Assembly: GCA_964603585.1 (NCBI GenBank)
Contig: CAZRVK010000005.1
Location: 18,609 to 71,274, forward strand
Direction of reading: 5' to 3'
Length of the DNA: 52,666 nt
DNA from: an uncultured Planctomycetales bacterium
GTDB taxonomy: Bacteria > Omnitrophota > Gorgyraeia > Gygaellales > Profunditerraquicolaceae
How positions within the stretch are numbered: position 1 is the first letter of the stretch; every line of letters starts with the position of its first letter. The notes beneath the pieces are model-generated. The model searched no databases. It was given only the letters and a program-made list of their open reading frames with translations, and was not told the origin of the DNA. A program made the position numbers and the translations under genes. Shown here one piece after another: positions 10,488 through 50,952 of this stretch.

Positions 10488-10605
10488 AAAAAGGGGACGT
10501 TTCTATTTTTCCGCTTCCCCTTTTTTCCTTCTTGACCAGCTTAGGTTTCTGGCATAAAATAACTTTCGCCAGGGAAAAGCGGAAAAATAGAAACGTCCCC
10601 TTTTT
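10488..10605. repeat. GGGGACGTTTCTA inverted-repeat element, locus A (29-bp arms, 60-nt loop)
   Basis: 10488-10516 is the exact reverse complement of 10577-10605. Confidence 0.95.
10532..10560 (+). promoter_or_regulatory. Sigma70-like promoter inside loop of locus A
   Basis: TTGACC-17-TAAAAT. Confidence 0.65.
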
Positions 10606-10615
10606 TCCTATAATT

Positions 10616-10640
10616 GTAGGGGGTGGTCGTGACCGCCCCT
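10616..10640 (+). repeat. GTAG-type REP hairpin
   Basis: gtagggggtggtcgtgaccgcccct. Confidence 0.85.
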
Positions 10641-10665
10641 GTATTTCTTAGTGAAGGGATTAAAT

Positions 10666-11325
10666 ATGAATGCAATAAAAACTAAGTCGTTGGAAAATCT
10701 GGAGCACAAAATGGCGGATATGGATGAGAATTCACTTAGGTACCATATCCTTAAGAATGCCAAAGACTTTAAGACTTCATGGATAGAACTTGGCCGCGCA
10801 CTTTATACGGTTTGGAAAGATAAGTTGTATAAAGAATGGGGTTATAGTGAATTCGACATTTATACTGCCAAAGAAATCGGTATCCGCAAACAAACAGCGA
10901 TGAAGCTGTTGAAATCGTATTATTTCCTGGAAAAGGAAGAGCCGACATATTTGGCTCAAGAGCATGTAGAAATCCAGGATACGGCATCTGTCCCTAGTTT
11001 TGAATCCGTGGATGTTTTGCGCCAGGCAAAAAACAAGAAGGATCTGGATAAAGAAGATTATTCAAGGTTAAGGAAGGATGTCCTGGAAAATGGCAAGGAT
11101 GCCAGCGATGTTAAGAAGAATCTGGCGGTGATCATTCGCCAAAGGCAGGAGTTGGATCCGGAAGAAGCCTGGGAAAAGAAGAAAATATCCGTGGTAAAAA
11201 GGATGATTGGCACTTTAAAATCGTTGAAGAATGAAGTGGAGGTGGCAAAGCTTTTGCCGGCAAAGATTATCGATGAAATCGCATCCTTAATCCGTAAATT
11301 AGAAGAGGACGCCGTTAAAGTATAG
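10666..11325 (+). CDS. Conserved-looking hypothetical helical protein (possible DUF3102-like N-terminal domain)
   Basis: Long ORF; WIELGRALY..LYKEWGYSEF..EIGIRKQTAMKL resembles DUF3102-type segments; ATG 10666 with GAAGGG RBS. Confidence 0.75.
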   Translation: MNAIKTKSLENLEHKMADMDENSLRYHILKNAKDFKTSWIELGRALYTVWKDKLYKEWGYSEFDIYTAKEIGIRKQTAMKLLKSYYFLEKEEPTYLAQEHVEIQDTASVPSFESVDVLRQAKNKKDLDKEDYSRLRKDVLENGKDASDVKKNLAVIIRQRQELDPEEAWEKKKISVVKRMIGTLKSLKNEVEVAKLLPAKIIDEIASLIRKLEEDAVKV

Positions 11326-11361
11326 CTGTGTTGGCATAGGGTAGAGCAAGAAATTTAATCC

Positions 11362-11390
11362 TTGCCAAAAATGAGTAAGAATAGTAATAT
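11362..11390 (+). promoter_or_regulatory. Sigma70-like promoter
   Basis: TTGCCA-17-TAATAT upstream of lipoprotein gene. Confidence 0.55.
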
Positions 11391-11430
11391 ATATTAATTA
11401 CAAATTTGCTATATTCGGAGGGTAAGTCAA

Positions 11431-11892
11431 ATGAAAAAGATCATTTTAATGATAGCGGTTTTATCATTTGCCGCGGTTAATGCTGGGTGTCAAAATGCTA
11501 AATCCAGGGCTGCAGAAGGGGCGGTGATCGGCGGGGTGTTGGGAGCCGCAGCAGGCGGGATCATTGGCCATCAGAGCCATAGTGGTGGAGCCGGGGCAGG
11601 GATTGGGGCGGCGGTTGGCGCTTTAAGCGGAGCGGTTATTGGCGCTCAAATCGAGAAAAAACCCGCAGGCGAGAGTGCGCCAAGCCAGCCTGTTACGGTG
11701 GCAAGTACCTCTGAAGCCCAAATGTCTGTTTTACAGGTGATTGAACTGTCAAAAAGCGGGGCCACAGAGAATATTATCATTGATAAGATTAAAAAAAGCA
11801 ATTCAAAGTTTAATTTAACGCCAGAAGATGTTGATTATCTGAAAAAAGAAGGCGTAAGCCAGAATATTATTAATGCGATGCAGGGTGTTTAA
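11431..11892 (+). CDS. Glycine-zipper lipoprotein
   Basis: Lipobox NAGC; GAVIGGVLGAAAGGIIG..GAGIGAAVGALSGAVIG; small helical C-terminal domain. Confidence 0.88.
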   Translation: MKKIILMIAVLSFAAVNAGCQNAKSRAAEGAVIGGVLGAAAGGIIGHQSHSGGAGAGIGAAVGALSGAVIGAQIEKKPAGESAPSQPVTVASTSEAQMSVLQVIELSKSGATENIIIDKIKKSNSKFNLTPEDVDYLKKEGVSQNIINAMQGV

Positions 11893-11903
11893 AGGAGGAT
11901 TAA

Positions 11904-12059
11904 ATGGTTGAAAGAAGCGAGTTTAAAGGTAAGCCGGTACTTATCTTGAAAAGGAATGAAGAGGATAAATACCCCTTCTCCTTCGGTATCTCCAAAGCCC
12001 GTTTGATAATGGAGAACCTTGATGAGATAAAGAAGTTTGTCGACGAGAATAAGGAATAA
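11904..12059 (+). CDS. 51-aa small protein absent from ORF track (possible PC4-like fold)
   Basis: AAGGAGG RBS; MVERSEFKGKPVLILKRNEEDKYPFSFGISKARLIMENLDEIKKFVDENKE. Confidence 0.8.
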   Translation: MVERSEFKGKPVLILKRNEEDKYPFSFGISKARLIMENLDEIKKFVDENKE

Positions 12060-12067
12060 ATATCGCC

Positions 12068-12096
12068 TTGACTGCCGGCGGTAAATATGCTAACTT
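12068..12096 (+). promoter_or_regulatory. Sigma70-like promoter for candidate sRNA
   Basis: TTGACT-17-TAACTT with TG extension. Confidence 0.55.
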
Positions 12097-12102
12097 ATTA
12101 AT

Positions 12103-12182
12103 GAGGCGAGGGGTAAAATTACCATTGGGCAGGCAATGCCCGAGCGCGTAAGCCAAAGAAAAAATTTCCCCTTGCCTTTTTT
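12103..12182 (+). ncRNA. Candidate ~80-nt structured small RNA
   Basis: Closing stem aggcgagggg/ccccttgcct plus aaa/ttt, internal GGGCA-GGCAA-TGCCC hairpin, T-tract end, own promoter. Confidence 0.45.
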
Positions 12183-12197
12183 ATTTTCTCCCCGGAC

Positions 12198-12226
12198 TTG
12201 AAATCCTGCCAAAGCCAAGCTATACT
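12198..12226 (+). promoter_or_regulatory. Sigma70-like promoter for PilZ gene
   Basis: TTGAAA-17-TATACT. Confidence 0.65.
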
Positions 12227-12274
12227 TAATCTGTAAGCTAAGATGATTACTGTCCCTTTTAAAGGGATATACTG

Positions 12275-12317
12275 CCACGGGTGAAAATGACCAGCTCCTT
12301 TTGACCGTGGCTTTTTT
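12275..12317 (+). terminator. Leader terminator/attenuator-like hairpin
   Basis: gccacgg/ccgtggc stem, 23-nt loop, T6; lies between promoter and PilZ start. Confidence 0.55.
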
Positions 12318-12343
12318 GTTGTCCTTCGATGGGAGGTTAGCAT

Positions 12344-12733
12344 ATGAATCTTCGATATTTGGGTAATGACCGGCGCAGGTTTCAGCGGCTAAATGTCAAT
12401 CTTTCGGTTTTTTATAAGGTGGTATCTCCGCTTGCGGCCCGTTTCTTGACTATGGACCGCGAGGTCGAAGCTGTCACTTTGGATATTAGCGGAGGGGGGA
12501 TGGCTTTTTTGAGCCGGTATAATATTCCGGTTAAAGCTATATTGAATATGCGTTTTATTTTATTTAAGATGGATAAGGAAGGTTTAGTCAGTTTCAATGA
12601 TCCTGTCGAAGTAACTGCCGAGGTGCGTTCTAATGTAAGCGCGCAAAACTCCAAAGAATACCGCCTGGGGGTTTATTTTAAGGGGATAAAAGAAGAAACT
12701 AAAGCCGGCCTAACCGATTTCTGCCGGATATAA
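12344..12733 (+). CDS. PilZ-domain protein (c-di-GMP receptor)
   Basis: RRRFQR (RxxxR) and DISGGG (D/NxSxxG); GGGAGG RBS. Confidence 0.9.
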   Translation: MNLRYLGNDRRRFQRLNVNLSVFYKVVSPLAARFLTMDREVEAVTLDISGGGMAFLSRYNIPVKAILNMRFILFKMDKEGLVSFNDPVEVTAEVRSNVSAQNSKEYRLGVYFKGIKEETKAGLTDFCRI

Positions 12734-12771
12734 AAGGTTTTATAAAATAAATGGTATTTGTTTCTTTGGGG

Positions 12772-13230
12772 CTATTTAAACAGGATCTTATCGGCGGCGG
12801 TTATTTCTCCACAAAAGATCCATAATGAGGTTTGCAGGCGCTCATCTTCAAGGCGGATGATTTTGCCGTCTTTTTGGATGTTTTGCCCTTTTTCCAGGTC
12901 TTTTACTTTGTCTTTATCTTTGAAAAGAAAGATTACCTGGTAGGGTGAGTTGTTTTTGGTTTTTAGTTGTTCTGTCGTAACCTGATAGTAAGTTGCGCCA
13001 ACATCGTTTGCAGTATCGAATGAATTATATACCTGGACATTGTTTACCTGGCCGCTTGCAGAGATCTCTTTACCGGTAGAGTCCGCTGATATTTGGGCTT
13101 TTTGTAAGCTGGTCGCTTTCTGGAAATCATCTATAATGTTTTCTACCGCAAGCTGCGCAGCATAAGAGAAGCTGCTTATTAATAATGCGCATAACATAAA
13201 TAAAAACCCGCGTATCAGTTTATTTTTCAT
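12772..13230 (-). CDS. Secreted protein, possible OB-fold
   Basis: GGAGGA RBS; signal peptide ending SYA; ISASGQV..DLEKGQNI pattern reminiscent of extracytoplasmic OB folds. Confidence 0.75.
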   Translation of the reverse strand: MKNKLIRGFLFMLCALLISSFSYAAQLAVENIIDDFQKATSLQKAQISADSTGKEISASGQVNNVQVYNSFDTANDVGATYYQVTTEQLKTKNNSPYQVIFLFKDKDKVKDLEKGQNIQKDGKIIRLEDERLQTSLWIFCGEITAADKILFK

Positions 13231-13263
13231 TTGTTCCTCCTTATTATTTTTCAGTCTAATTGT

Positions 13264-13291
13264 ATTTTATCCTTCAAAAAGCAATTTGCAA
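13264..13291 (-). promoter_or_regulatory. Divergent sigma70-like promoter
   Basis: TTGCAA-16-TAAAAT on minus strand. Confidence 0.4.
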
Positions 13292-13311
13292 GTGTTTTTT
13301 TGGAAAAATGC

Positions 13312-13340
13312 TTGACAATTGTATGCGTTAAGTATATAAA
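13312..13340 (+). promoter_or_regulatory. Sigma70 promoter of efflux operon
   Basis: TTGACA-17-TATAAA. Confidence 0.75.
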
Positions 13341-13381
13341 TATATGTAATAAATATATATCTATATATGAAAAGCATACAA
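13319..13381. promoter_or_regulatory. Candidate operator: inverted half-sites TTGTATGCGTT / AAAGCATACAA
   Basis: 13319-13329 and 13371-13381 are reverse complements at 10/11 positions. Confidence 0.45.
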
Positions 13382-13396
13382 CCCGGCGTGATGCCG

Positions 13397-14986
13397 ATGA
13401 AGTTTTCCCAGAATGCGGTAAAGATACTGGGGCTTTTTTATTCCCACCCAAAAGAGCAATTCTATATTCATCAGTTAGGCCGCCTGCTAAAAAAGAAACC
13501 CGGGGTTTTTCAGCGGGTCCTGTATAATCTTGAGAAGCAAGGGGTTCTAAAAAGCCGGTTTTTAGCCAATGCCCGGTATTTTAGCCTGAATGAGAAGTAT
13601 CCGTTTTATAAGGAGCTTAAGAGTATTATTCAGAAAATGACCCCGGTCATATCCCTGGTTTTTCTTTTGAATACGTTATTAATTTCTCCGAATACCGCCT
13701 TTTGCGATAATGAAATTCTCCAGACTCTTGAACTCTCTTCTTTTTCGGAAGCGGCTAAGATAGCGCTTAAGAATAATAAAGATATCCAGATCCAGGAGCA
13801 GGCGCTGAATATAGCCAGTGCAGATATTTTGAATGCAAAAAGCGAGTTTTTGCCTAAAGTGGATTTTAACTCAAGCTATACACATAATGGCGCGGTGCTT
13901 CATTCTGGAAACTCTACTGCCGCCAAGAAGGACCCCGGGATATTTTCCGGTTTCAAGAACGATAATGCTCTGGGGATAAGCGTCAGCGAAACTGTTTATA
14001 ACGGCGGTGCAAACACTGCTCTCCTTCGCCAGGCACAGCTTGCTTTAAAAGAACAGACACAAACCCTAAGGGCTACCAGGCTCAATGTTGAACTGGAAGC
14101 AAAAAGGCTTTATTATGGCTTGTTGCTTGCTTATGAGACACGGCGTATCGCCGCTAATCTCATTCAGCAGGCCCAGAGCCATTATGAACAGATAAAGCAA
14201 AACCTCTCCCAGGGGACATCTTCGCGGTTTGATCTTCTGCAATCCAAAGTGCAGGTTTCACTTCTTATGCCTCAATTGATCAATGCCGATAATTCCATAG
14301 ATTTGATAGTAGCAGAGTTTAATAAACTTTTAGGCAGGAATGTAATGGCTAAGATTATTGTTGTCGATAAATTGAATTATGAGCCTTTTGAAATTAAAGA
14401 ATCGGATTTCTTGAAAGAGGCTTATTTGAATGAGCCGGAAATGATCTTAAGGTCACTGGGCATAGATATCAGCAAGTGGGCGGTTAAATACGCCCGTGCC
14501 GGATGGCTGCCGCAGGTTGAGGCGGGTGCGGATTATTCATACAGGTCCAATAACCTGGGGAATATGGTTAACAGTAAGCATAATAACTGGAACATTGGTT
14601 TTACTGTGCGTGTACCGATATTCGATGGGTTCTCCACTAAGGCCAAGGTAGATGCTGCCCGGGCAAAATATATGCAGTCAGTGATCGGCAAGGATAATTA
14701 CGCTGATCAGGTGGCAGTGGATGTCAGGCAGGCCTGTCTTGATCTTAAGCAGGCGAGCGCGATCATTGAATCTCAAAGGGATAATTTAGAGGATGCCAGT
14801 GAAGCATTGGAGATCTCCTACGTTCGTTACAATAATGGTGTGGGGATAAACCTGGATGTAATGGATGCCCAGGTTTCTTTGGCGAATGTGGAAAAGAACT
14901 TTGCCGAGGGTGTTTATGACTATATTATGGCAAAGGCAAAACTGGATAGGTTAATGGGCAAGGGCGGGATCGAGGAGGCCAAATGA
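13397..14986 (+). CDS. Winged-HTH::TolC-family outer-membrane efflux protein fusion
   Basis: First ~80 aa wHTH-like (FYIHQLGRLL..PGVFQRVLYNLEKQGVL..NARYFSLN); internal signal-like segment from 13637; two OEP repeats (ALKNNKDI, FLPKVDF, WLPQV, VPIFDG). Confidence 0.85.
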   Translation: MKFSQNAVKILGLFYSHPKEQFYIHQLGRLLKKKPGVFQRVLYNLEKQGVLKSRFLANARYFSLNEKYPFYKELKSIIQKMTPVISLVFLLNTLLISPNTAFCDNEILQTLELSSFSEAAKIALKNNKDIQIQEQALNIASADILNAKSEFLPKVDFNSSYTHNGAVLHSGNSTAAKKDPGIFSGFKNDNALGISVSETVYNGGANTALLRQAQLALKEQTQTLRATRLNVELEAKRLYYGLLLAYETRRIAANLIQQAQSHYEQIKQNLSQGTSSRFDLLQSKVQVSLLMPQLINADNSIDLIVAEFNKLLGRNVMAKIIVVDKLNYEPFEIKESDFLKEAYLNEPEMILRSLGIDISKWAVKYARAGWLPQVEAGADYSYRSNNLGNMVNSKHNNWNIGFTVRVPIFDGFSTKAKVDAARAKYMQSVIGKDNYADQVAVDVRQACLDLKQASAIIESQRDNLEDASEALEISYVRYNNGVGINLDVMDAQVSLANVEKNFAEGVYDYIMAKAKLDRLMGKGGIEEAK

Positions 14987-15816
14987 AAAAAAGATTGAAG
15001 TTTGTGGTTATTGCGATAGTTTTGATCGCGGCAGTTTCTGCAGCCGCTGTTTTCTTTATAAACCAGAGGAACGGCCGTAATAAACTGATCAAGGTCTCCG
15101 GCAACATAGAAGGTGATGATGTGCGTATTTCATTCCGGGTCGCCGGTCAAATCGTAGAACTTCTTACCGATGAGGGGCTGGTAGTAAAAAAAGGCGATAT
15201 TGTCGCCCGCCTGAACAAGGATGAGTTGAGTAAAACCAAGGCGGAGGCGGAGGCATCTTTAAAATACGCCGAGTATCAGTATAAACTCGATCGCGATGAT
15301 TATATTCGGGCGGAAAATCTTTTTAAGGCCGGGGCGATTTCCGAACAAAAACGCGATGCCGCTAAAACCCGCATGGATACCGATTACGCCAATATTAAAC
15401 AGCTGCGTGCTTCTCTGGAACTGGCCAATACTAAATTAGGCTGGACCGATCTTGCCAGCCCGCTTGATGGCTATATCCTGGTAAAGAGTTCTTTGGCTGG
15501 TGAGGTGGTACAGGCGGGGACACCGGTTTTTACCGCCGTTAATCTCGATGAAGTCTGGGTTACCGCTTATATCAGCGAGTCGGATTTAGGTAAGGTCAAG
15601 TTAGGCCAAAAGGCTTATGTCCAGACTGACAGTTATAAGGATAAGCGTTATAACGGCTGGATCTCATTTATCTCGAATCAGGCAGAATTCACTCCTAAAT
15701 ATATCCAGACTTCCGAGGAACGGGTCAAGTATGTTTACCGCATAAAAGTCCGGGTCGATAATTCAAGCCTGGAATTAAAACCCGGAATGCCCGCGGATGC
15801 CTATATTATTGAATAA
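14983..15816 (+). CDS. HlyD/MFP efflux adaptor (YbhG-like)
   Basis: VSGNIE, GQIVELL..EG..VKKG, SPLDG, AEFTPKYIQT, LKPGMPAD. Confidence 0.93.
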   Translation: MKKRLKFVVIAIVLIAAVSAAAVFFINQRNGRNKLIKVSGNIEGDDVRISFRVAGQIVELLTDEGLVVKKGDIVARLNKDELSKTKAEAEASLKYAEYQYKLDRDDYIRAENLFKAGAISEQKRDAAKTRMDTDYANIKQLRASLELANTKLGWTDLASPLDGYILVKSSLAGEVVQAGTPVFTAVNLDEVWVTAYISESDLGKVKLGQKAYVQTDSYKDKRYNGWISFISNQAEFTPKYIQTSEERVKYVYRIKVRVDNSSLELKPGMPADAYIIE

Positions 15817-15819
15817 CGC

Positions 15820-16557
15820 ATGATCACCATTAAGACGGAAAATCTCACCCGCAAGTTCGGGGAATTGACTGCCTTGGACAGCCTGGATCTTGAAGTAAGT
15901 GAAGGCGAGATCTTTGGCCTGGTTGGTCCTGACGGGGCAGGTAAAACTACCACTATGCGCCTTTTAACCGGGATCCTGGATCCGACTGCCGGGCAAGCCT
16001 GGGTTTATGATAAGCATACGTTTAAGGAATCCGAAGCCCTAAAAGAAAATATCGCTTATATGTCCCAGCGATTCGGGCTTTACGAGGAATTAAGCGTTCA
16101 GGAGAATATAAATTTCTACGCCGATATTTACGGCGTAGATAAAAAAAAACGCGTTGAAACGATCGACCGGTTGCTTGAGTTTTCTGGACTCCTGCCTTTT
16201 AAACAGCGTTTTGCCGGTAAGCTTTCCGGAGGGATGAAGCAGAAGTTAGGTTTGGCCTGTGCTTTGATCCATACCCCAAAAGTTTTATTTCTGGATGAAC
16301 CCACTAATGGGGTTGATCCGGTTTCCCGCCGTGATTTCTGGAATATCCTCTATGATTTGCTTAAGGAGAAAGTCACCATCTTCTGCTCTACCTGTTATCT
16401 GGATGAAGCCGAACGCTGCGGCCGGGTGGGGCTTATGCATAAGGGCCGGCTTTTACGTTGTGACCCTCCGGGTAAGATTAAAAAGGAATACAATGCTAAA
16501 ACCCTGGAAGAGGCGTTTGTTATTATTATCAAGGAATATGAAGGAAAACACTCTTAA
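15820..16557 (+). CDS. ABC ATP-binding protein (YbhF N-half-like)
   Basis: GPDGAGKTT, LSGGMKQK, LFLDEP; H-loop reads STCY. Confidence 0.93.
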   Translation: MITIKTENLTRKFGELTALDSLDLEVSEGEIFGLVGPDGAGKTTTMRLLTGILDPTAGQAWVYDKHTFKESEALKENIAYMSQRFGLYEELSVQENINFYADIYGVDKKKRVETIDRLLEFSGLLPFKQRFAGKLSGGMKQKLGLACALIHTPKVLFLDEPTNGVDPVSRRDFWNILYDLLKEKVTIFCSTCYLDEAERCGRVGLMHKGRLLRCDPPGKIKKEYNAKTLEEAFVIIIKEYEGKHS

Positions 16558-18617: not shown

Positions 18618-18627
18618 GAGGAGACTG

Positions 18628-19755: not shown

Positions 19756-19796
19756 ATCACCCGGGTTTATCCATTGTCCGGAGGAGACATAAGTAA

Positions 19797-20210
19797 ATGA
19801 AAATATCGAAAGAATCCATTATCAGGATCACATTCACTGTTATATTGCTGTTACTTTTTCTTTTTGCCAACATTTATACCTTCCGGCAGCTTTCCCGTAC
19901 CGGGCTTGAACTGTATTTTTACGATAAATTATTGGTTGCTTACCAAAGTGCCGGCCTGGCAGGTTTCAACAATGAGCTGGAGAGGATGCTTTTAGAGGAT
20001 AAGATGCCCAAGGAAGCGGTTCTTGCCAAGGAATTTCAGGCTAATTTGAATAAAATAGGCCCGGTAGATAAATTCTTAAAAGAAGTGATACAAGACAAGA
20101 AGATGAGGATTAACCATCTCAACCTGATGCGCAGAATCGCGTTTATTCTTATCCTCCTGATCATATCTTTTCGCCTGGCAGTTAATCTTTATTTTAGAAA
20201 GCGTAAATAA
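19797..20210 (+). CDS. Hypothetical membrane protein (2 TM)
   Basis: GGAGGAG RBS; hydrophobic segments at both ends. Confidence 0.75.
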   Translation: MKISKESIIRITFTVILLLLFLFANIYTFRQLSRTGLELYFYDKLLVAYQSAGLAGFNNELERMLLEDKMPKEAVLAKEFQANLNKIGPVDKFLKEVIQDKKMRINHLNLMRRIAFILILLIISFRLAVNLYFRKRK

Positions 20211-20283
20211 AACCGGATTCCGCTGGATTTTCTTATCTATGTGGGTTTTGTGATAATTATAGCCTGCGAGGAATGCTTGTTCT

Positions 20284-20306
20284 GTAGGGGCGGTCGTAAC
20301 CGCCCC
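20284..20306 (+). repeat. GTAG-type REP hairpin
   Basis: gtaggggcggtcgtaaccgcccc. Confidence 0.85.
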
Positions 20307-20375: not shown

Positions 20376-20403
20376 GTAGGGGATGGTCGCGACCATCCAC
20401 TAC
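20376..20403 (+). repeat. GTAG-type REP hairpin (compensatory variant)
   Basis: gtaggggatggtcgcgaccatccactac. Confidence 0.85.
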
Positions 20404-20407
20404 AAAT

Positions 20408-20467
20408 AAAGGGGACGTTGCAATAAAGGGGACGCCTGCCTGCCGGCAGGCAGGTTTCTATTTTTCC
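20408..20467 (+). repeat. GGGGACGTTTCTA element locus B: truncated copy plus interrupted solo arm
   Basis: aaaggggacgtt (20408-19), then aaaggggacg[20-bp insert]tttctatttttcc. Confidence 0.9.
20435..20454. mobile_element. 20-bp perfect palindrome CCTGCCTGCCGGCAGGCAGG inserted in locus B
   Basis: Self-complementary; removing it restores the consensus arm exactly. Confidence 0.8.
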
Positions 20468-20526
20468 TATAATTCGCCCGCCGTTGTGTTATAATAACTT
20501 TCCTGATTAAAAGGAGTTTGTATCTT

Positions 20527-28871: not shown

Positions 28872-28898
28872 GTAGTGGGGGCGGTCGTGAACGTCCCT
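28872..28898 (+). repeat. Degenerate GTAG-type REP
   Basis: gtagtgggggcggtcgtgaacgtccct. Confidence 0.6.
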
Positions 28899-28938
28899 CG
28901 TAGGGATTTAATGTTTATAATCTAAAGCGGAGGCAATT

Positions 28939-31114: not shown

Positions 31115-31209
31115 GCAAAAAAGCAAAAAAGGGGACGTTTCTATTTTTTGAAAAAAATAGAAACGTCCCCTTTTTGCTTTTTGCCCTTTTTGCAAACGTC
31201 CCCTTTTTG
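31115..31209. repeat. GGGGACGTTTCTA element locus D (near-perfect palindrome plus extra partial arm)
   Basis: Arms 31125-31149 / 31151-31175, complementary outer GCAAAAAA/TTTTTGC tandems, third partial arm 31194-31209; lies between convergent genes. Confidence 0.95.
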
Positions 31210-31218
31210 TCCAGAAAC

Positions 31219-31530
31219 TTATTTCGTGCTTTCTATATCACATATCGCAACTTCAGCGAATACCGTATCTGGCTCAACAGGTAAACCGTTTAATGCGGGG
31301 ATGATAACCGTGTTTCCGCCCAATTTGGTAGCTTCCATAGTCAATTCAGTATCTATGAGCCATTGTCTTTTTCCCCGCGTATTTACTGTAATATTACTAA
31401 TGACTCTACATTTATATCCGTCAGGAAGAATGCCTTTAGGGGCGATTATTATTTCTACTTTCGGAGTAGTTTTATTTGCACATCCACTAATTAGCATTAC
31501 CATAAGGAATAGATAAATTAATTCTCTTAT
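31219..31530 (-). CDS. Small lipoprotein (possible YbjQ/DUF4156-like fold); start ATA 31530 or ATG 31503
   Basis: Lipobox ISGC; EATKLGGNTVII; AGGAGG RBS precedes in-frame ATA. Confidence 0.65.
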   Translation of the reverse strand: MRELIYLFLMVMLISGCANKTTPKVEIIIAPKGILPDGYKCRVISNITVNTRGKRQWLIDTELTMEATKLGGNTVIIPALNGLPVEPDTVFAEVAICDIESTK

Positions 31531-31718: not shown

Positions 31719-31792
31719 GCAAAAAAGGGGACGTTTCTATTTTTCGGGAAAAAATAGAAACGTCCCCTTTTTTGGAAACGTCCCCTTTTTTG
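31719..31792. repeat. GGGGACGTTTCTA element locus E
   Basis: Arms about 31720-31745 / 31748-31774, extra partial arm 31775-31792. Confidence 0.95.
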
Positions 31793-31946
31793 CTTTTACT
31801 GAAAAATAGGTGTTAGATTTAGCGGGGGTTTGCGTCTGTTATATTAGCGAGCAGGATTAGCTTTAGAGATTATTAGACGGCTTTGTGAAAATTTGCTTTG
31901 CTTTATAGATTAAAGATAGTAAAATAAAACAGTCAATTTAAATGCA

Positions 31947-44982: not shown

Positions 44983-45761
44983 TTGTTGTCATCGGCGGGA
45001 TAGCGATACTTGTTTCTGCTTTTGTGGTTGTCGTCAGGCCTAAATATGTCGTGCCGATACTTATGTATCATTATTTTCATCCTGATGCTACGGTGCGTGA
45101 TTCTCTGGTAGTCCGGCCCGAGAGTTTCCAGAGTCAGATGGCTTTTTTGAAAAAGCACCGGTACAATGTCATTTCCTTGGAAGCATTGGCGGCTTTGATC
45201 AGGCAAAATAAGCCTATACCCGGCCGTACAATTGTCATTACCTTTGATGATGGGTATAAAAGCATTTTAGAGTATGCTTTTCCTGTATTGGAAAAATACC
45301 ATTTCCCGGCAACGATATTTGTGATCGTTAGTGAAGTAGGCAGAGCTACTCATTTGAGCTGGCAGGATATGCATAAGATGCAAGCCACCGGGCTTATCAC
45401 TATTGGTAGTCATTGCTTGGACCCGGAGCCATTAATTAATATAAAATCCGAGCAGGAGTTAAAAAAAGAGATTTTTGATTCAAAGCGTATTATCGAGGAT
45501 AAGTTGGGAATTAAGGTGAATACCTTTAGTTATCCGGAGGGCAGGTTTGATCCGAGGATCAGGCAGCTGGTGATTGATGCCGGTTACACTGTCGCGGTTG
45601 CGACCAACCCCGGACGTGATTCAGCGGACCGCGATTTGTTCGCTCTAAAAAGGCTTAGGATTTCGGAGAATTGCGCAAATATGCTTTCATTTGCCGGAGT
45701 GACCTCGGGTTTTTATACCTTTATGAAGGAATATAAAAAGCACCGCCATGCAAAAAAATAA
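44961..45761 (+). CDS. Polysaccharide deacetylase (NodB-like)
   Basis: PILMYH, ITFDDGY, GSHC, FSYPEG. Confidence 0.9.
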   Translation: MLKNKRLIVVIGGIAILVSAFVVVVRPKYVVPILMYHYFHPDATVRDSLVVRPESFQSQMAFLKKHRYNVISLEALAALIRQNKPIPGRTIVITFDDGYKSILEYAFPVLEKYHFPATIFVIVSEVGRATHLSWQDMHKMQATGLITIGSHCLDPEPLINIKSEQELKKEIFDSKRIIEDKLGIKVNTFSYPEGRFDPRIRQLVIDAGYTVAVATNPGRDSADRDLFALKRLRISENCANMLSFAGVTSGFYTFMKEYKKHRHAKK

Positions 45762-46773
45762 GCGCATAGTTATTTTTAATGTTAACTGGTTGGGGGATGT
45801 GTTGTTTTCTACTCCGGTGATCCGCGCTTTGCGTCAAAGTTATCCGCAGGCTTATTTGGCCTGCATTATCCCCGCACGCTGCCTGCCGGTTTTAGAGGCA
45901 AATCCTTACTTGGATGAGATCATATTTTTCGATGACAGATCGACACATAAAAGCCTCTTTGCCAAGATCAATTTTATTTTTACCCTGAAAAAAAGGAGAT
46001 TCGATACGGCGATTTTACTGCATGGATCACTTACCCGGGCGTTAATTTCTAAGCTGGCGGGTATCCCCGAGAGGATAGGTTATGATACTAAGCGCCGGGG
46101 TTTTCTCTTGACCCGTAAGATCAATCCTCCCCGCGTGGATAGCCTGCACCGGGTTGATTATTATCTCGGAGTTATTCAGGCCTGGGGAGTAAAGCCTGTT
46201 GGGCAGAGGCTTGATCTTTTCCTGGATCCAAATGACCAAAAGGGTTGCGATGATTTTCTTGGCCGCAGCGGCCTGACCCCGGATGATATTATCGTAGGGA
46301 TAAATCCCGGAGGGAATTGGCTTCCTAAACGCTGGCCAACGGAGTCATGGAAAAAACTTTCTGATAAATTGATCGCGGATTTAGGAGTAAAGGTGGTAGT
46401 TACCGGAGGTTTAGAGGATTTGGCGTTTGCCGAAGAGATCGCGCATGGAGGGGGGGCGGTTATTGCTGCAGGTAAACTCAACTTAAGGCAATCCGCGGCT
46501 TTGTTCAAGAGGCTGAATATCTTTATTTGTGCGGATACCGGGCCGCTGCATATTGCGAATGCAGTAGGTGCAAAGAAAATTATTGCCCTGTTTGGTCCAA
46601 CTGACGCGTGTTTAACCGGGCCGATCCCGGATGAGAATGTATGTATTTTGCAAAAGAATATCGGATGCACTATCCCTTGTTATCAGAAGAATTGTCCGGA
46701 TAACCGGTGCATGAAAGCAATAGGGGTAGATGAGGTTTTTACGCAAGTAAGAAAAATGATTGGAGTTAATTAG
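45748..46773 (+). CDS. waaF: Lipopolysaccharide heptosyltransferase II-like (GT9)
   Basis: NWLGDVLFSTP, INPGGNWLPKRWP, DTGPLHIA, LFGPT. Confidence 0.8.
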   Translation: MQKNKRIVIFNVNWLGDVLFSTPVIRALRQSYPQAYLACIIPARCLPVLEANPYLDEIIFFDDRSTHKSLFAKINFIFTLKKRRFDTAILLHGSLTRALISKLAGIPERIGYDTKRRGFLLTRKINPPRVDSLHRVDYYLGVIQAWGVKPVGQRLDLFLDPNDQKGCDDFLGRSGLTPDDIIVGINPGGNWLPKRWPTESWKKLSDKLIADLGVKVVVTGGLEDLAFAEEIAHGGGAVIAAGKLNLRQSAALFKRLNIFICADTGPLHIANAVGAKKIIALFGPTDACLTGPIPDENVCILQKNIGCTIPCYQKNCPDNRCMKAIGVDEVFTQVRKMIGVN

Positions 46774-46780
46774 CATTGTA

Positions 46781-46836
46781 GCAATAAAGGGCAATAAAGG
46801 CAATAAAGGGCAATAAAGGGGACGTTTCTATTTTTT
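46781..46836 (+). repeat. (GCAATAAAGG)x4 tandem leading into solo GGGGACGTTTCTA arm, locus F
   Basis: gcaataaagg gcaataaag gcaataaagg gcaataaagg ggacgtttctatttttt. Confidence 0.92.
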
Positions 46837-46854
46837 CGAACTAAACTCATTTTC

Positions 46855-46876
46855 GGGGCGGTCGCAACCGCACCCC
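46855..46876 (+). repeat. REP hairpin lacking GTAG foot
   Basis: ggggcggtcgcaaccgcacccc. Confidence 0.7.
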
Positions 46877-46913
46877 ACAGGGTATATCCCTTTATAAGGG
46901 GATAAGGATAAAT

Positions 46914-48956
46914 ATGGTTAGGAAGATCCTTTTTATCACTTTAAGTAATCTCGGGGATATGGTTCTTACTTTTCCGTCACTGGATTATTTGCGGGTGGTA
47001 TTTAGCGAGGCCAGTATAACCGTTATTTCCGGTGAGCGCGGCAAAGAATTATTTGAAAACAATCCGTCGGTTTTTCGTTGGATAGCTTTTGATAAGCATG
47101 CCGCTCTAAGGGAAAAATTTTCTTTACTGCAAACTCTCCAAAAAGAAAGATTTGATTTGATCATAGATTTACGTAACAGTTTTTTTGGGGTATATCTTAA
47201 GGCCCAATATAAAACCAGTCTTTTTTTACTTCCTCCGAAGCAGATCCTGCATATGCGGGACCGGCACCTGTATAAGATCCAAAGTGTTTTATCCAATATA
47301 GGCCTTTCAAAGGTAAGGGATGTTCAGAAAGTAGCATTACATATAACGGAATCCGATAAAGATTATGTGGGGGATTTGCTAAAAAAGAATGGCGTGATCT
47401 GGGAGGATCGTATCATTGCGATCTCCGTTGGCGCGCGCAGCCACATTAAGCGCTGGAAAGAAGAGAAATTTGCGGAATTAGTATTCTCTTTGGCTAAGGA
47501 ACCAAAGGTAAAAATGGTTCTGGTGGGAGACTCCCAGGATGCACCGATTGCTGAACGCATTATTGAACTTAGTAAAGTCCCGGCAATCAATTTTACCGGT
47601 AAAACCACTTTTTTACAGTTGGCAAGTTTATTTCAAATGTCGGCTTGTGTAATTACTAATGACAGCGCGGCTTTGCACCTGGCAAGTTATCTGGACCGTC
47701 CGGTTGTGGCGATCTTCGGGCCGACGGATGAATCGAAATACGGCCCTTGGTCAAGAATCAGCGCAGTGGTAAAAAAAGAAGTCTTCTGCCGTCCGTGTGA
47801 ATTGGCGCAATGCCAGTTTGGCACGTTAAAGTGTATGGAGATCATTAAGACAGAAGATGTGTTAGGGCAAGTAAGGAATATCCTGGATACAGGTATGTTC
47901 CTGGCTGTAAGTAGAAGCGAATTTAAGCGCATACTCATCGTACGCACGGACAGGATCGGAGATGTTGTGCTTTCTACCCCGGTCATTAAAGCATTGAGGG
48001 ATGGGTTTCCCCAGGCATATATTACAATGATGGTTTCTCCTTATGCTGCGGGAGTAGTTGAGGGGAATCCGTATTTGGATGAGGTGATTGTTTATGATAA
48101 AGATAAAGAACACAAAAGCTGGTGGAGTTCTTTTAACTTTTGTCGAGAGCTCTCCAGAAGAAAATTTGACCTGGCGGTCATTTTGCATCCGACGAACCGG
48201 GCACACCTTTTAGCTTTTCTTGCCGGGATTCCCCGGCGGGTTGGGTATGACAAGAAACTGGGGTTTTTGCTCACTGATAAATTATTACATTCCAAGCAGT
48301 TGGGTGAAAAACACGAAATAGGATACAATCTGGATCTGGTACGTGTGCTTGGACTTGATCCTAAAGATTGCCTGCCTTTTGTGCCGATTAAGCCCGAGGC
48401 AGAAGCCTGGGCAAACCAGGAATTGGCTGCTGCCGGGATCAAAAAAACCGAGAAGATATTAGTAATCCACCCCGGGGCAAGCTGTCCTTCGAAGATTTGG
48501 CCTCCGGATCGTTTCGCGGCAAGCGGGGATAGATTGATCGAACGGTACGGTTTTAAAGCCGTGATTATTTCTGGGCCAAAAGATATTGGTTTGGCTGATG
48601 ATCTGGAAAAAATGATGAAACATTCTGCATTGAATCTTGCTGGTAAGACTACAGTGGAACAGATGGCGAGTATTTTAAAAAGAAGCCGGCTTTTTATCTC
48701 CAACGACTCTGGTCCAGTGCATATTGCTTCAGCTTTAGGGGTGCCGGTTGTTTCTATTTTTGGCCGTTCCCAGGCTGGATTAAGCCCTAAACGTTGGGGG
48801 CCGAGCGGTTCAAACAGCCGTATTTTGCATAGAGAAGTGGGTTGTATCGAATGCCTGGCGCACAATTGTGTTAAGGGTTTTGCATGTTTAAAAGCGATTA
48901 CTGTAGAGGATGTAATGATGGCTGTCTCGGAATTATTGGAAGTAAATAAAACTTAA
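46914..48956 (+). CDS. Tandem GT9::GT9 heptosyltransferase-like fusion
   Basis: SNLGDMVL..TNDSAALH..FGPT, then DRIGDVVLSTP..SNDSGPVH..FGRS. Confidence 0.9.
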   Translation: MVRKILFITLSNLGDMVLTFPSLDYLRVVFSEASITVISGERGKELFENNPSVFRWIAFDKHAALREKFSLLQTLQKERFDLIIDLRNSFFGVYLKAQYKTSLFLLPPKQILHMRDRHLYKIQSVLSNIGLSKVRDVQKVALHITESDKDYVGDLLKKNGVIWEDRIIAISVGARSHIKRWKEEKFAELVFSLAKEPKVKMVLVGDSQDAPIAERIIELSKVPAINFTGKTTFLQLASLFQMSACVITNDSAALHLASYLDRPVVAIFGPTDESKYGPWSRISAVVKKEVFCRPCELAQCQFGTLKCMEIIKTEDVLGQVRNILDTGMFLAVSRSEFKRILIVRTDRIGDVVLSTPVIKALRDGFPQAYITMMVSPYAAGVVEGNPYLDEVIVYDKDKEHKSWWSSFNFCRELSRRKFDLAVILHPTNRAHLLAFLAGIPRRVGYDKKLGFLLTDKLLHSKQLGEKHEIGYNLDLVRVLGLDPKDCLPFVPIKPEAEAWANQELAAAGIKKTEKILVIHPGASCPSKIWPPDRFAASGDRLIERYGFKAVIISGPKDIGLADDLEKMMKHSALNLAGKTTVEQMASILKRSRLFISNDSGPVHIASALGVPVVSIFGRSQAGLSPKRWGPSGSNSRILHREVGCIECLAHNCVKGFACLKAITVEDVMMAVSELLEVNKT

Positions 48957-49019
48957 GATTATTGATTAAATGCCGATTTAAAGTATGCTAATACTATTAT
49001 CTTTAGATTAAGTTTCATT

Positions 49020-49047
49020 GCAGGGGTCAGTCGTGACCGCCCATTAC
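49020..49047 (+). repeat. Degenerate GTAG-type REP (GCAG)
   Basis: gcaggggtcagtcgtgaccgcccattac. Confidence 0.7.
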
Positions 49048-49061
49048 AGAAAAAAAAAAGA

Positions 49062-49147
49062 AAAAAAGGGGACGTTTCTATTTTTTATCTATCTTAATTG
49101 CTAAAAAAATAGAAACGTCCCCTTTTTTGGAAACGTCCCCTTTTTTG
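49062..49147. repeat. GGGGACGTTTCTA element locus G
   Basis: Arms 49062-49086 / 49104-49128, 17-nt loop, extra partial arm 49130-49147. Confidence 0.95.
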
Positions 49148-49167
49148 CCCTTTTTTGATAAAAAGTC

Positions 49168-49196
49168 TTGATATTGCTAATTTATTCTAATATACT
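49168..49196 (+). promoter_or_regulatory. Sigma70-like promoter
   Basis: TTGATA-17-TATACT; implies true start at ATG 49234 rather than TTG 49168. Confidence 0.65.
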
Positions 49197-49233
49197 AATA
49201 TTATTATTTTTCAGTCAAAAATCCCGCAGGCTT

Positions 49234-50829
49234 ATGAATAAACTGCTCATTTTGTTTTTAAAGTTTATTTCCATTCCAGTTTTTTTATTTTGTTTTTCCT
49301 CCTTCCAGTATGCTTTCGCTAACAATATGGCGGTAAGTAGTGTGATTTTGACCTCACAAGATACAGGTGCTGATACCGTCAAGGTCCAATTCAATATCTC
49401 TTGGGCTAATTCCTGGCGGGACGCTGCAAATTACGATGCCGCCTGGGTGTTTGCTAAATATTCTACCGATGGAGCGACTTGGAAACACCTGACTTTAAAG
49501 AGTTCAGGGACTAATCCTTCGGGATTTGTTACCGGAAGCGGCACATCGATACAGATCGTGGTGCCAACTGATAAAAAGGGGTGTTTTATCCAGCGTTCCG
49601 GCAATGGCACAGGCACTTTGACCACCACCGGTATAAACCTGGTTTGGGACTATGGCACTGACGGATTAGGAGACAGCGATATCTTTACTGCGAATATGCG
49701 CCTGAAAGTATTTGCGATCGAGATGATATATATCCCAGCCGCAAGTTTTTATATTGGCGATGGCAATGGGACAACCGAGTCGGTTTATGCATTTCATAGC
49801 GGTACCAGTAATTCTGCGGCATTGATCGGTACGTCTTTGACTAGAAATATCCGGACTGATTTTGCTCTAAATAATGATGATACTCAGCTTACTGGTACGG
49901 GAGCAGGTTCAGGCCTGGGTATTGGCGGTTCGGGTGTATGGTCGGGCTTAGATACTAATAATGACGGCACTATTGATAATGCCAGTTTCCCTACTGGATA
50001 TAATCCATTTTACCTGATGAAGTATGAAGTCACCGAAGGCCAATGGGTGGAATTCTTTAATACTTTAACCAGTGCCCAAAAAACCGCAAGAGACCTTACG
50101 GGTGCAGCCGGTAAAAACAGTCAGGCAGTAGAGTCTCGCAACACTATTGCCTGGTCTGGTGGGACAAGTGATGCGACTACTATCCGGGAAAATCGGGCAT
50201 GTAATTATCTTTCCTGGTCAGATTTGATGGCTTATGCGGATTGGGCGGGTTTGCGACCTATGACAGAACTGGAATTCGAAAAAGCCTGCCGTGGCTCTAC
50301 TGCTTCTGTGTATGCAGAATATGCCTGGGGTAATAGCAGTGTAACACAGGCAGCGACTATTTCTGGTAGTGAAGATGGGACAGAAACGGTTACTAATTCC
50401 GGAGCAAATTGTAATTTTAATGCGATAACTTTTACTGGAGGAGATGGAGGGCAAGGCCCATTACGCGCAGGCATTTTTGCTACCAGTGCTTCTACTCGAG
50501 CGGTTGCTGGAGCAGGTTATTATGGGAATATGGAGTTATCTGGCAATAATTGGGAAAGAGCTGTAACTGTAGGTAATAGTACTGGAAGGTCATTTCAAGG
50601 TACGCATGGAGATGGCAGTTTAACCACTGCAGGTTTCGGCACTAATACTGATTGGCCGGGATATATTACCGGTAGTGGTATATCAGATGTTCAAGGTTCT
50701 GGTCTTCGCGGTAGCAGCTGGGCCGATGATTCAGACAAAGCACGTTCATCCAATCGTAGTTATGCTTCTTTCGCGTATGATGGCCGTGAAAATTTTACCG
50801 GAGGCAGGTTGGCCAGAACTTTAAATTAA
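49234..50829 (+). CDS. Secreted FGE-sulfatase/SUMF1-fold (CLec-like) protein
   Basis: Signal peptide ending AFA; FYLMKYEVT, SWSDLMAYADWAGLRPMTELEFEKACRG, MELSGNNWE, RGSSW, GGRLAR. Confidence 0.88.
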   Translation: MNKLLILFLKFISIPVFLFCFSSFQYAFANNMAVSSVILTSQDTGADTVKVQFNISWANSWRDAANYDAAWVFAKYSTDGATWKHLTLKSSGTNPSGFVTGSGTSIQIVVPTDKKGCFIQRSGNGTGTLTTTGINLVWDYGTDGLGDSDIFTANMRLKVFAIEMIYIPAASFYIGDGNGTTESVYAFHSGTSNSAALIGTSLTRNIRTDFALNNDDTQLTGTGAGSGLGIGGSGVWSGLDTNNDGTIDNASFPTGYNPFYLMKYEVTEGQWVEFFNTLTSAQKTARDLTGAAGKNSQAVESRNTIAWSGGTSDATTIRENRACNYLSWSDLMAYADWAGLRPMTELEFEKACRGSTASVYAEYAWGNSSVTQAATISGSEDGTETVTNSGANCNFNAITFTGGDGGQGPLRAGIFATSASTRAVAGAGYYGNMELSGNNWERAVTVGNSTGRSFQGTHGDGSLTTAGFGTNTDWPGYITGSGISDVQGSGLRGSSWADDSDKARSSNRSYASFAYDGRENFTGGRLARTLN

Positions 50830-50837
50830 ATTTCATT

Positions 50838-50865
50838 GTAGGGGGCGGTTATGACCGCCCCCTAC
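50838..50865 (+). repeat. GTAG-type REP hairpin
   Basis: gtagggggcggttatgaccgccccctac. Confidence 0.88.
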
Positions 50866-50883
50866 CTGTTAGAAAAAAAAGGT

Positions 50884-50952
50884 AAAAAAGGGGACGTTTC
50901 TATTTTTTCGCGAATTAAGGAAGGATGAAAAATAGAAACGTCCCCTTTTTTT
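50884..50952. repeat. GGGGACGTTTCTA element locus H
   Basis: Arms about 50884-50909 / 50927-50951, ~17-nt loop. Confidence 0.95.

Follow-up and report, generated by a model that had tools for sequence, protein, structure and literature searches.

Miniature TIRtron-like inverted repeats dispersed in a Candidatus Omnitrophota genome and their association with a subclass 2.1 Y1 transposase

The window analysed here, a 52.7-kb stretch of a Candidatus Omnitrophota genome taken from a 180-kb contig, contains seven intergenic loci built from one 21-nt arm, AAAGGGGACGTTTCTATTTTT. With a probability of roughly three in four, these loci are gene-less miniature copies of TIRtrons that are mobilised by a Y1 transposase of subclass 2.1 (TIRYT). 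The proposed role of this enzyme is suggested by association, as the same arms bracket its gene in other genomes. The miniature form consists only of two 21-26-nt arms and a short spacer, and a single strand of it, as DNA or as RNA, folds into a 25-35-bp hairpin. The family is apparently undescribed, while the kind of element is already known. We know of no TIRYT that has been shown biochemically to mobilise anything.

Eleven exact copies of AAAGGGGACGTTTCTATTTTT occur in the window against 0.01 expected, and none of 100 shuffles of the window gave 11 copies. Allowing one to three mismatches revealed no additional copies in the window. Five of the seven loci are long hairpins, another is a solo arm, and in the remaining one a foreign 20-nt palindrome interrupts the arm; this gives 5 dimers and 2 singles, to which 5 truncated copies are added. 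Truncated additional arms are seen as CGTCCCC at 31197, 31779 and 49134 (loci D, E and G) and as GGGGACG at 20411 (locus B), and within the window GGGGACG/CGTCCCC is confined to the seven loci. A preliminary description of this DNA had recognised a dispersed non-autonomous family with inverted arm pairs and these truncated arms, all of which we recover. Its positions lay 2-4 nt too far out, as the A-tract had been included; the pairs begin at 10490/10583, 31128/31153, 31724/31750, 49065/49105 and 50887/50928. Of its two solo arms, the one at 46815 stands, but the one at 20425 is a complete arm cleanly split by the palindrome. The features are as follows.

Locus A, 10488..10605, unstranded: hairpin element, arms 10490-10510 (forward) and 10583-10603 (reverse) with 72 nt between; inner ends CCGCTT/AAGCGG lengthen the stem (DNA fold -46 kcal/mol, z -10.6); interior with a partial arm end CCCCTTTTTTCC and a promoter-like TTGACC-17-TAAAAT.
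Locus B, 20408..20419, plus strand: additional truncated forward arm AAAGGGGACGTT.
Locus B, 20425..20465, plus strand: complete forward arm without partner arm, split into 20425-20434 and 20455-20465 by the 20-nt palindrome CCTGCCTGCCGGCAGGCAGG at 20435-20454 (order AAAGGGGACG / CCTGCCTGCCGGCAGGCAGG / TTTCTATTTTT).
Locus D, 31115..31184, unstranded: hairpin element, arms 31128-31148 and 31153-31173, 4-nt gap; stem lengthened by GCAAAAAAGCAAAAAA / TTTTTGCTTTTTGC; flanking genes convergent; terminator-like on both strands.
Locus D, 31185..31209, plus strand: terminal stutter, units CCTTTTTG and CAAACGTCCCCTTTTTG (truncated reverse arm).
Locus E, 31719..31774, unstranded: hairpin element, arms 31724-31744 and 31750-31770, 5-nt gap; in a divergent intergenic region, upstream of dprA.
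Locus E, 31775..31792, plus strand: second copy of the 18-nt GAAACGTCCCCTTTTTTG, a tandem duplicate of 31757-31774, also present in Logan contig L179.
Locus F, 46782..46835, plus strand: solo forward arm (46815-46835) without a fold, preceded by a stutter of three CAATAAAGG(G) units at 46782-46810.
Locus G, 49061..49129, unstranded: hairpin element, arms 49065-49085 and 49105-49125, 19-nt loop.
Locus G, 49130..49157, plus strand: second GAAACGTCCCCTTTTTTG copy (49130-49147) and unit CCCTTTTTTG (49148-49157).
Locus H, 50875..50963, unstranded: hairpin element, arms 50887-50907 and 50928-50948, 20-nt loop; outer stutter AAAAAAGG / CCTTTTTT lengthens the stem; directly upstream of the conserved promoter TTGATT-16-TAAAAT of a DS-like gene.

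DNA folding of the five pairs yields -30 to -46 kcal/mol; the corresponding z-scores range from -7.8 to -10.6. The single 21-mer displays neither self-complementarity nor GTAG, and no fold was obtained for the solo arm at locus F. Gaps between the paired 21-mers (A, D, E, G and H) measure 72, 4, 5, 19 and 20 nt, in agreement with the loops of 1 to 60 nt given previously once additional complementary bases are counted. Complementarity continues past the core at loci A, D and H, as had been pointed out for A and D. The arms are identical and the loops mutually unrelated. The spacers of the five hairpins range from 4 to 72 nt, and these hairpins do not represent recent copies of a single master. 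An identical, derived 18-nt tandem duplication is common to loci E and G, which implies either unit copying or a site-specific recurrent event. GTAG-type REPs, seven of which occur in the window, lie 9-20 nt from five of the seven loci, bearing out an earlier remark; these adjoining REPs are a separate family. No direct repeat (target-site duplication) was found flanking the window copies.

No Y1 transposase gene was found in the 52.7 kb searched, consistent with the earlier statement that the window holds no mobiliser. Seven loci of other genomes (L094, L081, L066, L013, L055, L012 and L060) each have a Y1_Tnp gene between the two arms; it encodes a ~ 220-aa Y1/HUH transposase of the RAYT type (199-234 aa). 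The forward arm is located 30-170 nt upstream of the transposase start, and the reverse arm overlaps or abuts the stop codon, where L013 and L012 carry a forward/reverse arm pair. These transposases score 57-63 bits with Pfam Y1_Tnp, 72-77 bits with NCBIfam REP_Tyr_transpos (model cut-off 80) and 22 bits with NCBIfam transpos_IS200 (model cut-off 55); among PDB entries they match E. coli TnpA-REP (4ER8) best. N59, H60, H62, W99, Q100, Y120, I121, E122, N124 and P125 are invariant in our alignment A1, giving the motifs NHVH, WQ and YIELNP. Subclass 2.1 of TnpA-Y1 is defined by NHVH, W[EQ] and YIELNP at ~ 238 aa (Quentin et al. 2018, PMC6006769), and it equals TIRYT and RAYT Group 1, the latter being the name of Bertels et al. 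(2017, PMC5581495); TIRtrons and TIRYT were described with the repeat motif GGGGWSAS (Di Nocera et al. 2013, PMC3733652). Judged by its motifs, the transposase is a member of Quentin subclass 2.1, that is, of Bertels Group 1 or the "TIRYT" of Di Nocera. The preliminary description had favoured a REP-associated HUH tyrosine transposase, and this was largely correct: a Y1 gene bracketed by the same arms does exist elsewhere, but it is of the TIRYT rather than the GTAG-REP type.

The link between arm and enzyme extends beyond these loci. Most of 45 metagenomic homologues have inverted repeats at the same two positions, and the same arm-gene geometry is found in cultured R. rubrum. The repeat grades with protein identity from GGGGACG[T/C/G]TTCTATTTTT through GGGACAGCG.. 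to GGGGACAGAC, the published GGGGWSAS type. The arm GGGGACGT itself fits six of the eight positions of GGGG[AT][CG]A[CG], and remoter homologues in this graded series carry GGGGACAG / GGGACAGC. Identical 21-mers accompany transposases that are only 43-55% identical, whereas REP-RAYT pairs are usually less tightly conserved.

At least 36 species-level MAGs of several phyla contain the same 21-mer, and ~ 18 of these MAGs are Omnitrophota. It occurs in more than 95 eight-kb tiles from those MAGs, on contigs of up to 1.19 Mb. The partner of an exact arm is also exact in 109 of 136 cases. Arm mismatches fall mostly outside GGGGACGTTTC, and spacers are unalignable between genomes, with loop lengths near 19 nt in 32 of 53 cases (modal spacer 19 nt). 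All copies seen are non-coding except one, in frame within lepA of another genome (L086). Empty orthologous sites were found at locus F in three relatives and at locus E in three relatives. Locus D lies in the same variable region as E, where gene content differs between relatives, and one relative carries a variant family at site G. Occupied sites thus differ between lineages. Active spreading of the family, as proposed earlier, is plausible.

One MAG, MFD03726, contains at least 32 tiles of 8 kb with the 21-mer and encodes an arm-flanked RAYT. Six identical 61-nt arm-loop-arm units occur there with unrelated flanks and in both orientations; the strand-orientation bias is weak (21:8). Neither a target duplication nor a flanking direct repeat was found at 22 aligned MFD03726 copies; on these and the window copies, a DDE cut-and-paste MITE was rejected. 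Besides the seven loci with a complete gene, an eighth, L025, is a deletion intermediate: it measures 297 nt from arm to arm and retains remnants of the N- and C-termini of the transposase. Partial copies of the outer end occur in direct orientation in 24 of 168 cases, compared with 6 of 168 in the control orientation. The terminal stutter is best read as secondary in-situ duplication.

We hypothesize that this Omnitrophota genome encodes a TIRYT outside the window and that this enzyme recognises the arms when the DNA is single-stranded, a state in which the stem would bring both element boundaries together. The enzyme would cut and rejoin at the stem base without target-site duplication, like other Y1 transposases, and this would move or copy the unit into intergenic DNA. 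Under a strong enzyme-recognition constraint the core GGGGACGTTTC would hardly vary, while spacers would be free to drift. The truncated additional arms, the solo arms and the locus B palindrome could go back to secondary events at copies already in place, namely slippage at the stem base, abortive processing there, or deletions from one T-run to another. The A6/T6-flanked hairpins, positioned after stop codons and before promoters, would probably end transcription both ways, as a by-product or a co-opted function; such a role as bidirectional terminators is plausible. A further version has a small but appreciable chance: the arms would owe their identity not to recent copying but to a TIRYT that would continually re-process resident hairpins by a nick at the stem base, followed by hairpin-templated resynthesis or gene conversion, so that the core stays invariant across phyla, spacers drift and stutters are left behind. 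The hairpins would then be the main bidirectional terminators of Omnitrophota, and the system domesticated rather than selfish.

The preliminary description had pictured each copy as made anew at its site by templated DNA synthesis rather than copied as a unit; fold-back or template switching from a short core would be the means. Such rebuilding would account for the identical arms and unrelated loops of the window, the complementarity past the core at A, D and H, and the stutters, which are real and enriched as direct-orientation partial ends. However, identical 61-nt units at unrelated MFD03726 loci in both orientations, loop lengths that cluster near 19 nt across genomes and the derived 18-nt duplication common to E and G all count against this mechanism, and the full-length and deletion-intermediate forms offer an ordinary origin for miniatures. 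We consider rebuilding unlikely. It is quite unlikely, too, that the hairpins are primarily host terminators or insulators under selection, with the transposase association incidental, for example because the gene uses the same terminator. Their placement fits this reading: all seven loci are intergenic, the median distance to a facing stop codon is 42 nt (82 sites), and the element of locus H lies exactly in the interval from a stop codon to a promoter conserved in relatives. The terminator consensus fits on both strands at D and E, and A, G and H qualify by folding, as their loops exceed the limit of the scanner; beyond these, terminator-like sites are no more frequent in the window than after shuffling. 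Yet a GC stem and a U-tract suffice for termination, which does not need an identical 21-mer across phyla, and the arm sequence co-varies with the protein. A terminator would, moreover, have no role ahead of the transposase start, where a forward arm is found; termination is impossible for solo and split arms, locus E occupies a divergent promoter region, and one copy is in frame within lepA.

A signal for DNA uptake or another recognition protein, set in inverted pairs downstream of genes as in the DUS/USS of Neisseria and Haemophilus, could explain an invariant core, pairs in terminator positions and solo copies, and dprA adjoins locus E. DUS/USS were nevertheless rejected: they are 9-12 nt long, occur about once per kb, also within genes, and belong to one competent lineage, whereas this motif has 21 nt, is non-coding save for the lepA copy, is common to unrelated phyla and brackets a transposase gene with fixed geometry. 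An uptake signal is unlikely, and strongly so. Short-read contigs do break at the repeat, as does a contig (L179) from a separate Logan assembly of this organism, which could hint at chimerism or misassembly. That contig is base-for-base identical to the window over the right side of locus E, and therefore the repeats are not an assembly artefact, a concern the preliminary description had itself raised. With the same elements in dozens of independent assemblies and on contigs of up to megabase length, an artefact is scarcely credible.

To our knowledge, Group 1 or subclass 2.1 is the branch of the RAYTs that is largest and least understood, and none of its enzymes has been assayed. Its members reportedly lacked REP-like partners in one survey and showed only low-copy flanking words in another. 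The present family provides a sharply defined candidate substrate, a 21-nt arm with a nearly invariant 11-nt centre, together with full-length, intermediate and miniature forms, the last reaching REPIN-like density in some genomes; enzyme-substrate tests can therefore be designed directly. It also accounts for intergenic breaks in short-read Omnitrophota assemblies and is a likely source of terminators in a phylum without a cultured model. The general picture of bacterial miniature elements is unchanged.

Among known systems, TIRtrons share with this family a RAYT-like Y1 gene enclosed by long terminal inverted repeats, of which the first precedes the gene by tens of nt and the second meets or overlaps the stop codon. 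Also shared are a G-rich GGGGAC core within A/T runs and the dispersal of additional copies as singles, dimers and clusters. Their proteins carry the same NHVH, WQ and YIELNP motifs at about 220-240 aa. Unlike in TIRtrons, the core here is GGGGACGT instead of GGGGWSAS, the identical 21-mer spans at least 36 species of several phyla, the hosts are uncultured Omnitrophota and terminal stutter is prominent. Density is also far higher, with seven loci in 52.7 kb against the ~ 12 flanking-16-mer occurrences per replicon reported for Group 1.

REPIN-RAYT systems (Bertels & Rainey 2011, PMC3116915) likewise combine two inverted units and a short spacer into a hairpin that is the replicating unit, a property matched here by the folds and by the identical 61-nt units at different MFD03726 sites; they also keep repeats more conserved than spacers, and are non-autonomous, intergenic and linked to a RAYT gene flanked by the same repeats. 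In contrast, the arm here is not palindromic and lacks a GTAG head, the RAYT belongs to Group 1 instead of Group 2/3, and the repeat is conserved across phyla where REPIN repeats are lineage-specific. The GTAG-headed imperfect palindromes of Groups 2/3 were rejected, as the 21-mer has neither property and the solo arm is unfolded. IS200/IS605 elements and their miniature derivatives (PATEs) resemble the family in their Y1/HUH enzyme, DNA secondary structure and absence of target-site duplication, with single-strand transposition as the likely mode. Subclass 1.1 (Y---Q) was rejected, given the score below the model cut-off, Y---NP (YIELNP) in the enzyme, and terminal inverted repeats in place of the small subterminal hairpins of IS200 ends. 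Neisseria Correia elements and Rickettsia palindromic elements (RPEs) are also abundant intergenic inverted-repeat miniatures and possible terminators or promoters, and RPEs, like the copy in lepA, occasionally insert in frame within genes. Correia elements, however, duplicate a TA target and lack a known cognate Y1 enzyme, and RPEs, small palindromes with a CGTC tag, have no transposase associated with them.

The 21-nt arm AAAGGGGACGTTTCTATTTTT occurs 11 times in the window, and all 11 matches are exact in a search of the whole window that allowed up to 3 mismatches, where shuffled sequences lead to an expectation of 0.01. The matches are arranged as five inverted pairs and one solo arm.

Exact arms in the window
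10490/10583: inverted arm pair, locus A
31128/31153: inverted arm pair, locus D
31724/31750: inverted arm pair, locus E
49065/49105: inverted arm pair, locus G
50887/50928: inverted arm pair, locus H
46815: solo arm, exact 21-mer match, locus F

Reading the loci and listing all GGGGACG/CGTCCCC heptamers revealed that loci B, D, E and G carry additional truncated arms, while no such heptamer lies outside the family loci anywhere in the window. Almost all of the window's genes lie on the plus strand, and all loci are intergenic, with tandem genes around five of them, convergent genes around D and divergent genes around E. The dispersed intergenic inverted-repeat family of the preliminary description is thereby recovered, including its truncated arms. 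That description also listed a solo arm at 20425 (locus B); it is indeed a single arm that forms no hairpin, but not a plain one, being an entire arm split by the 20-nt palindrome CCTGCCTGCCGGCAGGCAGG, whose insertion neither removed nor duplicated any base. Folded as single-stranded DNA, the five pairs reach -30 to -46 kcal/mol (z-scores -7.8 to -10.6), whereas the solo and split arms give no fold. A known RNA gene as the source of the hairpins is ruled out by the empty results of Rfam at the gathering threshold (no family in the window) and of ARAGORN (no tRNA or tmRNA in the window).

Directly beside an arm at both locus A (10598-10611) and locus B (20460-20473) lies the 14-mer TTTTTCCTATAATT, which includes a perfect TATAAT box, with the start of the next gene 55-75 nt downstream. 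It may represent an outward promoter, belong to some longer unit, or be the scar left by a deletion between T-runs. The perfect palindrome CCTGCCTGCCGGCAGGCAGG (window 20435-20454) is found again, at 0-2 mismatches, in several assemblies of Omnitrophota type and looks like a third dispersed palindromic element of very small size.

Recurrences of CCTGCCTGCCGGCAGGCAGG in fetched loci (L-numbers)
L096: 37 and 6370
L097: 8112 and 12844
L003: 5396
L037: 63 and 4789
L043: 1796 and 2593
L107: 100

The window further contains seven REP palindromes headed by GTAG, GCAG or GTGG (GGGGCGGTCGYGACCGCCCC).

REP palindromes in the window
10616-10641
20284-20306
20376-20403
about 28872-28906
46854-46880, minus strand
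49020-49047
50838-50865

Five of the seven sit 9-20 nt from a hairpin element, in agreement with the earlier remark that most loci lie near a GTAG REP. The GTAG-type REPs are a family separate from the hairpin arms, presumably served by their own RAYT, and their co-location with the hairpins may reflect merely the scarcity of permissive intergenic sites.

Other genomes offer a direct view of the likely mobiliser. Several apparently solo matches there are really arm pairs 300-830 nt apart, enclosing an ORF of about 220 aa that scores 57-63 bits with Pfam Y1_Tnp, 72-77 bits with the NCBIfam model for REP-associated tyrosine transposases (cut-off 80) and 22 bits with the IS200 model. By tblastn the gene is present in ten fetched loci and not found in the window, as the preliminary description had stated; MFD03726, a MAG with many family copies, and the genome STC_87 each encode an arm-flanked copy. 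The geometry is constant, with the forward arm 30-170 nt upstream of the transposase start and the reverse arm over or directly after the stop codon, where L013 and L012 carry a forward/reverse arm pair. Where the reverse arm overlaps the gene, the stop codon TAG falls within AAAAATAG and the protein ends in ..RGRPRKxxK. The residues invariant in six arm-flanked proteins include NHVH, WQ and YIELNP, the signature of subclass 2.1, which equals Bertels' Group 1 and the 'TIRYT' of Di Nocera et al. 2013 (Quentin et al. 2018, PMC6006769); the inverted repeats flanking TIRYTs have GGGGWSAS in common (Di Nocera et al. 2013, PMC3733652). An alignment profile found E. coli TnpA-REP (4ER8) as the best solved relative, which only the profile reached, as phmmer with one transposase returned no match in the PDB. 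The direct association of the arms with this gene in other genomes supports reading the hairpins as a putative non-autonomous element that relies on a REP-associated Y1 transposase. The HUH tyrosine transposase proposed earlier thus stands as a Y1 enzyme bracketed by the arms, with the amendment that it is of the TIR-associated type.

In two Desulfobacterota-type MAGs (L017:5980-6492 and L079:400-512), a common non-coding stretch ending ..ATTATTCCCCTG....GATG precedes the reverse arm; it lacks a recognisable transposase ORF, and in L017 it is present (at least 90 nt) in two tandem copies 401 nt apart. It may be other cargo or a decayed element.

The miniature copies can be compared as units. 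In MFD03726 the spacer between the arms is conserved (CTTCTGATTAGGAAACGTT or its complement), and an identical 61-nt arm-spacer-arm unit occurs in six copies with unrelated flanks and in both orientations, none with a target-site duplication. The earlier proposal that copies are rebuilt at each site and not moved as a fixed unit is not supported by these units. Spacer orientation in this MAG shows a 21:8 bias against the coding strand, in weak agreement with strand-specific single-strand transposition. Exact arms at L025:7115-7432 enclose a 297-nt unit that still encodes N- and C-terminal transposase fragments; it is an intermediate, formed by internal deletion, between the full-length element and its miniature hairpin form. 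Spacer length falls within 17-22 nt for 48 of the 53 pairs (mode 19), with sequences that are unalignable across genomes. The partner of an exact arm is also exact in 109 of 136 cases, and where partners deviate, the mismatches concentrate in the outer AAA and the inner T-run and spare GGGGACGTTTC. When the window spacers and flanks were compared by BLAST with all 184 fetched loci, only chance-level matches appeared, except for a partial arm end within the interior of locus A; the idea that the window copies share one master spacer was rejected on this basis.

Partial copies beside the elements retain the outer end in every case, right-side units ending in ..TTTTTG and left-side units starting with CAA(T)AAAG... 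Across all fetched elements, same-orientation partial copies adjoin 24 of 168 outer flanks, as compared to 6 of 168 in the control orientation. We infer that these stutters arose secondarily, by duplication in situ at the G+C-rich base of the stem. Loci E and G have an 18-nt tandem duplication, GAAACGTCCCCTTTTTTG, in common.

Three relatives with conserved LPS gene order allowed a comparison of orthologous sites. Site F is empty in all three, with a spacing of 18-22 nt in two; at site G, L098 has a hairpin of variant type (arms GGAAACGTTTCTATTTTT), and L097 has other repeats. Upstream of dprA, where gene content varies, three relatives carry no family element. Occupancy of orthologous positions is thus not fixed. 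With protein identity at 60%, such site differences show turnover over long times and are not evidence of current activity. Genes between the hairpins vary as well.

Lineage-specific genes between hairpin pairs
31219-31503, minus strand: 94-aa ORF between D and E, the sole minus-strand gene in its neighbourhood, with no Pfam match
49168-50829, plus strand: 553-aa protein between G and H, carrying an FGE-sulfatase domain

The 553-aa gene is missing in L097 and swapped for another gene in L098, where a different, GGGGTCAG-type hairpin precedes the conserved promoter. The two genes may be insertions whose borders the hairpins mark. Since hairpins of the same design but other families (e.g. AAAAATGGGGTCAGAATTATTTTTT and its complement) occupy equivalent intergenic positions in related Omnitrophota (L098:9085-9240, L097:8070-8110), several TIR families of the TIRtron/TIRYT class appear to coexist in this phylum.

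A terminator role, which would not exclude mobility, is plausible. Loci D and E match a simple terminator consensus on both strands; other sites of this appearance occur in the window no more often than in shuffled sequence. Over 82 sites, the median distance is 42 nt to a facing stop codon and 69 nt to a facing start. Flanking gene pairs (tandem/convergent/divergent 70/7/5) do not differ from the background (520/37/34), and a special preference for convergent gene ends was rejected accordingly.

Homologues of two window proteins all belong to Candidatus Omnitrophota, the closest being only about 60% identical. The exact 21-mer, scanned with one genome per species, is present in at least 95 eight-kb tiles. 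Among the matches listed, about 18 are Omnitrophota MAGs and about 18 are MAGs labelled as other phyla (Desulfobacterota-type 'delta proteobacteria', Aminicenantes, Planctomycetes, Desantisbacteria, Parcubacteria, Terriglobales), several of these on contigs 138-590 kb long. Viral contigs of IMG/VR lack the 21-mer, and a phage vector is therefore without evidence. Logan contigs recruited with the window dprA are short and terminate at the repeat; one from the same organism (L179:1-40, short-read run SRR15237810) starts within the stutter of locus E and matches window 31764-31803 without a difference. This family probably causes contigs to break in short-read assemblies of Omnitrophota. In Parcubacteria GW2011_GWA2_47_26 (L086:3757-3823), a slightly degenerate family hairpin lies in frame within lepA (EF4), adding ..KKRDVSDFSERKIETSPFL.., similar to the in-frame palindromic elements of Rickettsia.

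A metagenome scan with the transposase alignment confirmed 565 relatives of the transposase. In most of the best 45 of these, which we examined, inverted repeats flank the gene at the same two positions, and among those 45 the repeat sequence follows protein identity.

Repeat sequence by protein identity
48-52%: GGGGACG[T/C/G]TTCTATTTTT and GGGACCGTTTCTATTTT
39%: AATAGGGACGTGCACATTTTT
33-35%: GGGACAGCGMCC.. and GGGGACAGACACC (published motif)

Plasmid records contain distant homologues only (at most 42% identity). One of them, from a Rhodospirillum rubrum plasmid, is a 'transposase' of 35% identity whose gene has the perfect 19-nt repeat TTAAAAGGGGTCAGACCCC on both sides, one copy ending 37 nt before the start and the other beginning 4 nt after the stop. 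Because the repeat grades with protein identity into the published motif, and given the R. rubrum geometry, the window family is, on sequence grounds, a branch of the TIRtron class, in which a TIRYT gene lies between terminal inverted repeats. The literature searched yielded no description of these repeats in Omnitrophota, and the kind of element is already published; we file the family under the TIRtron/TIRYT class as a new member of unusual density and unusual conservation.
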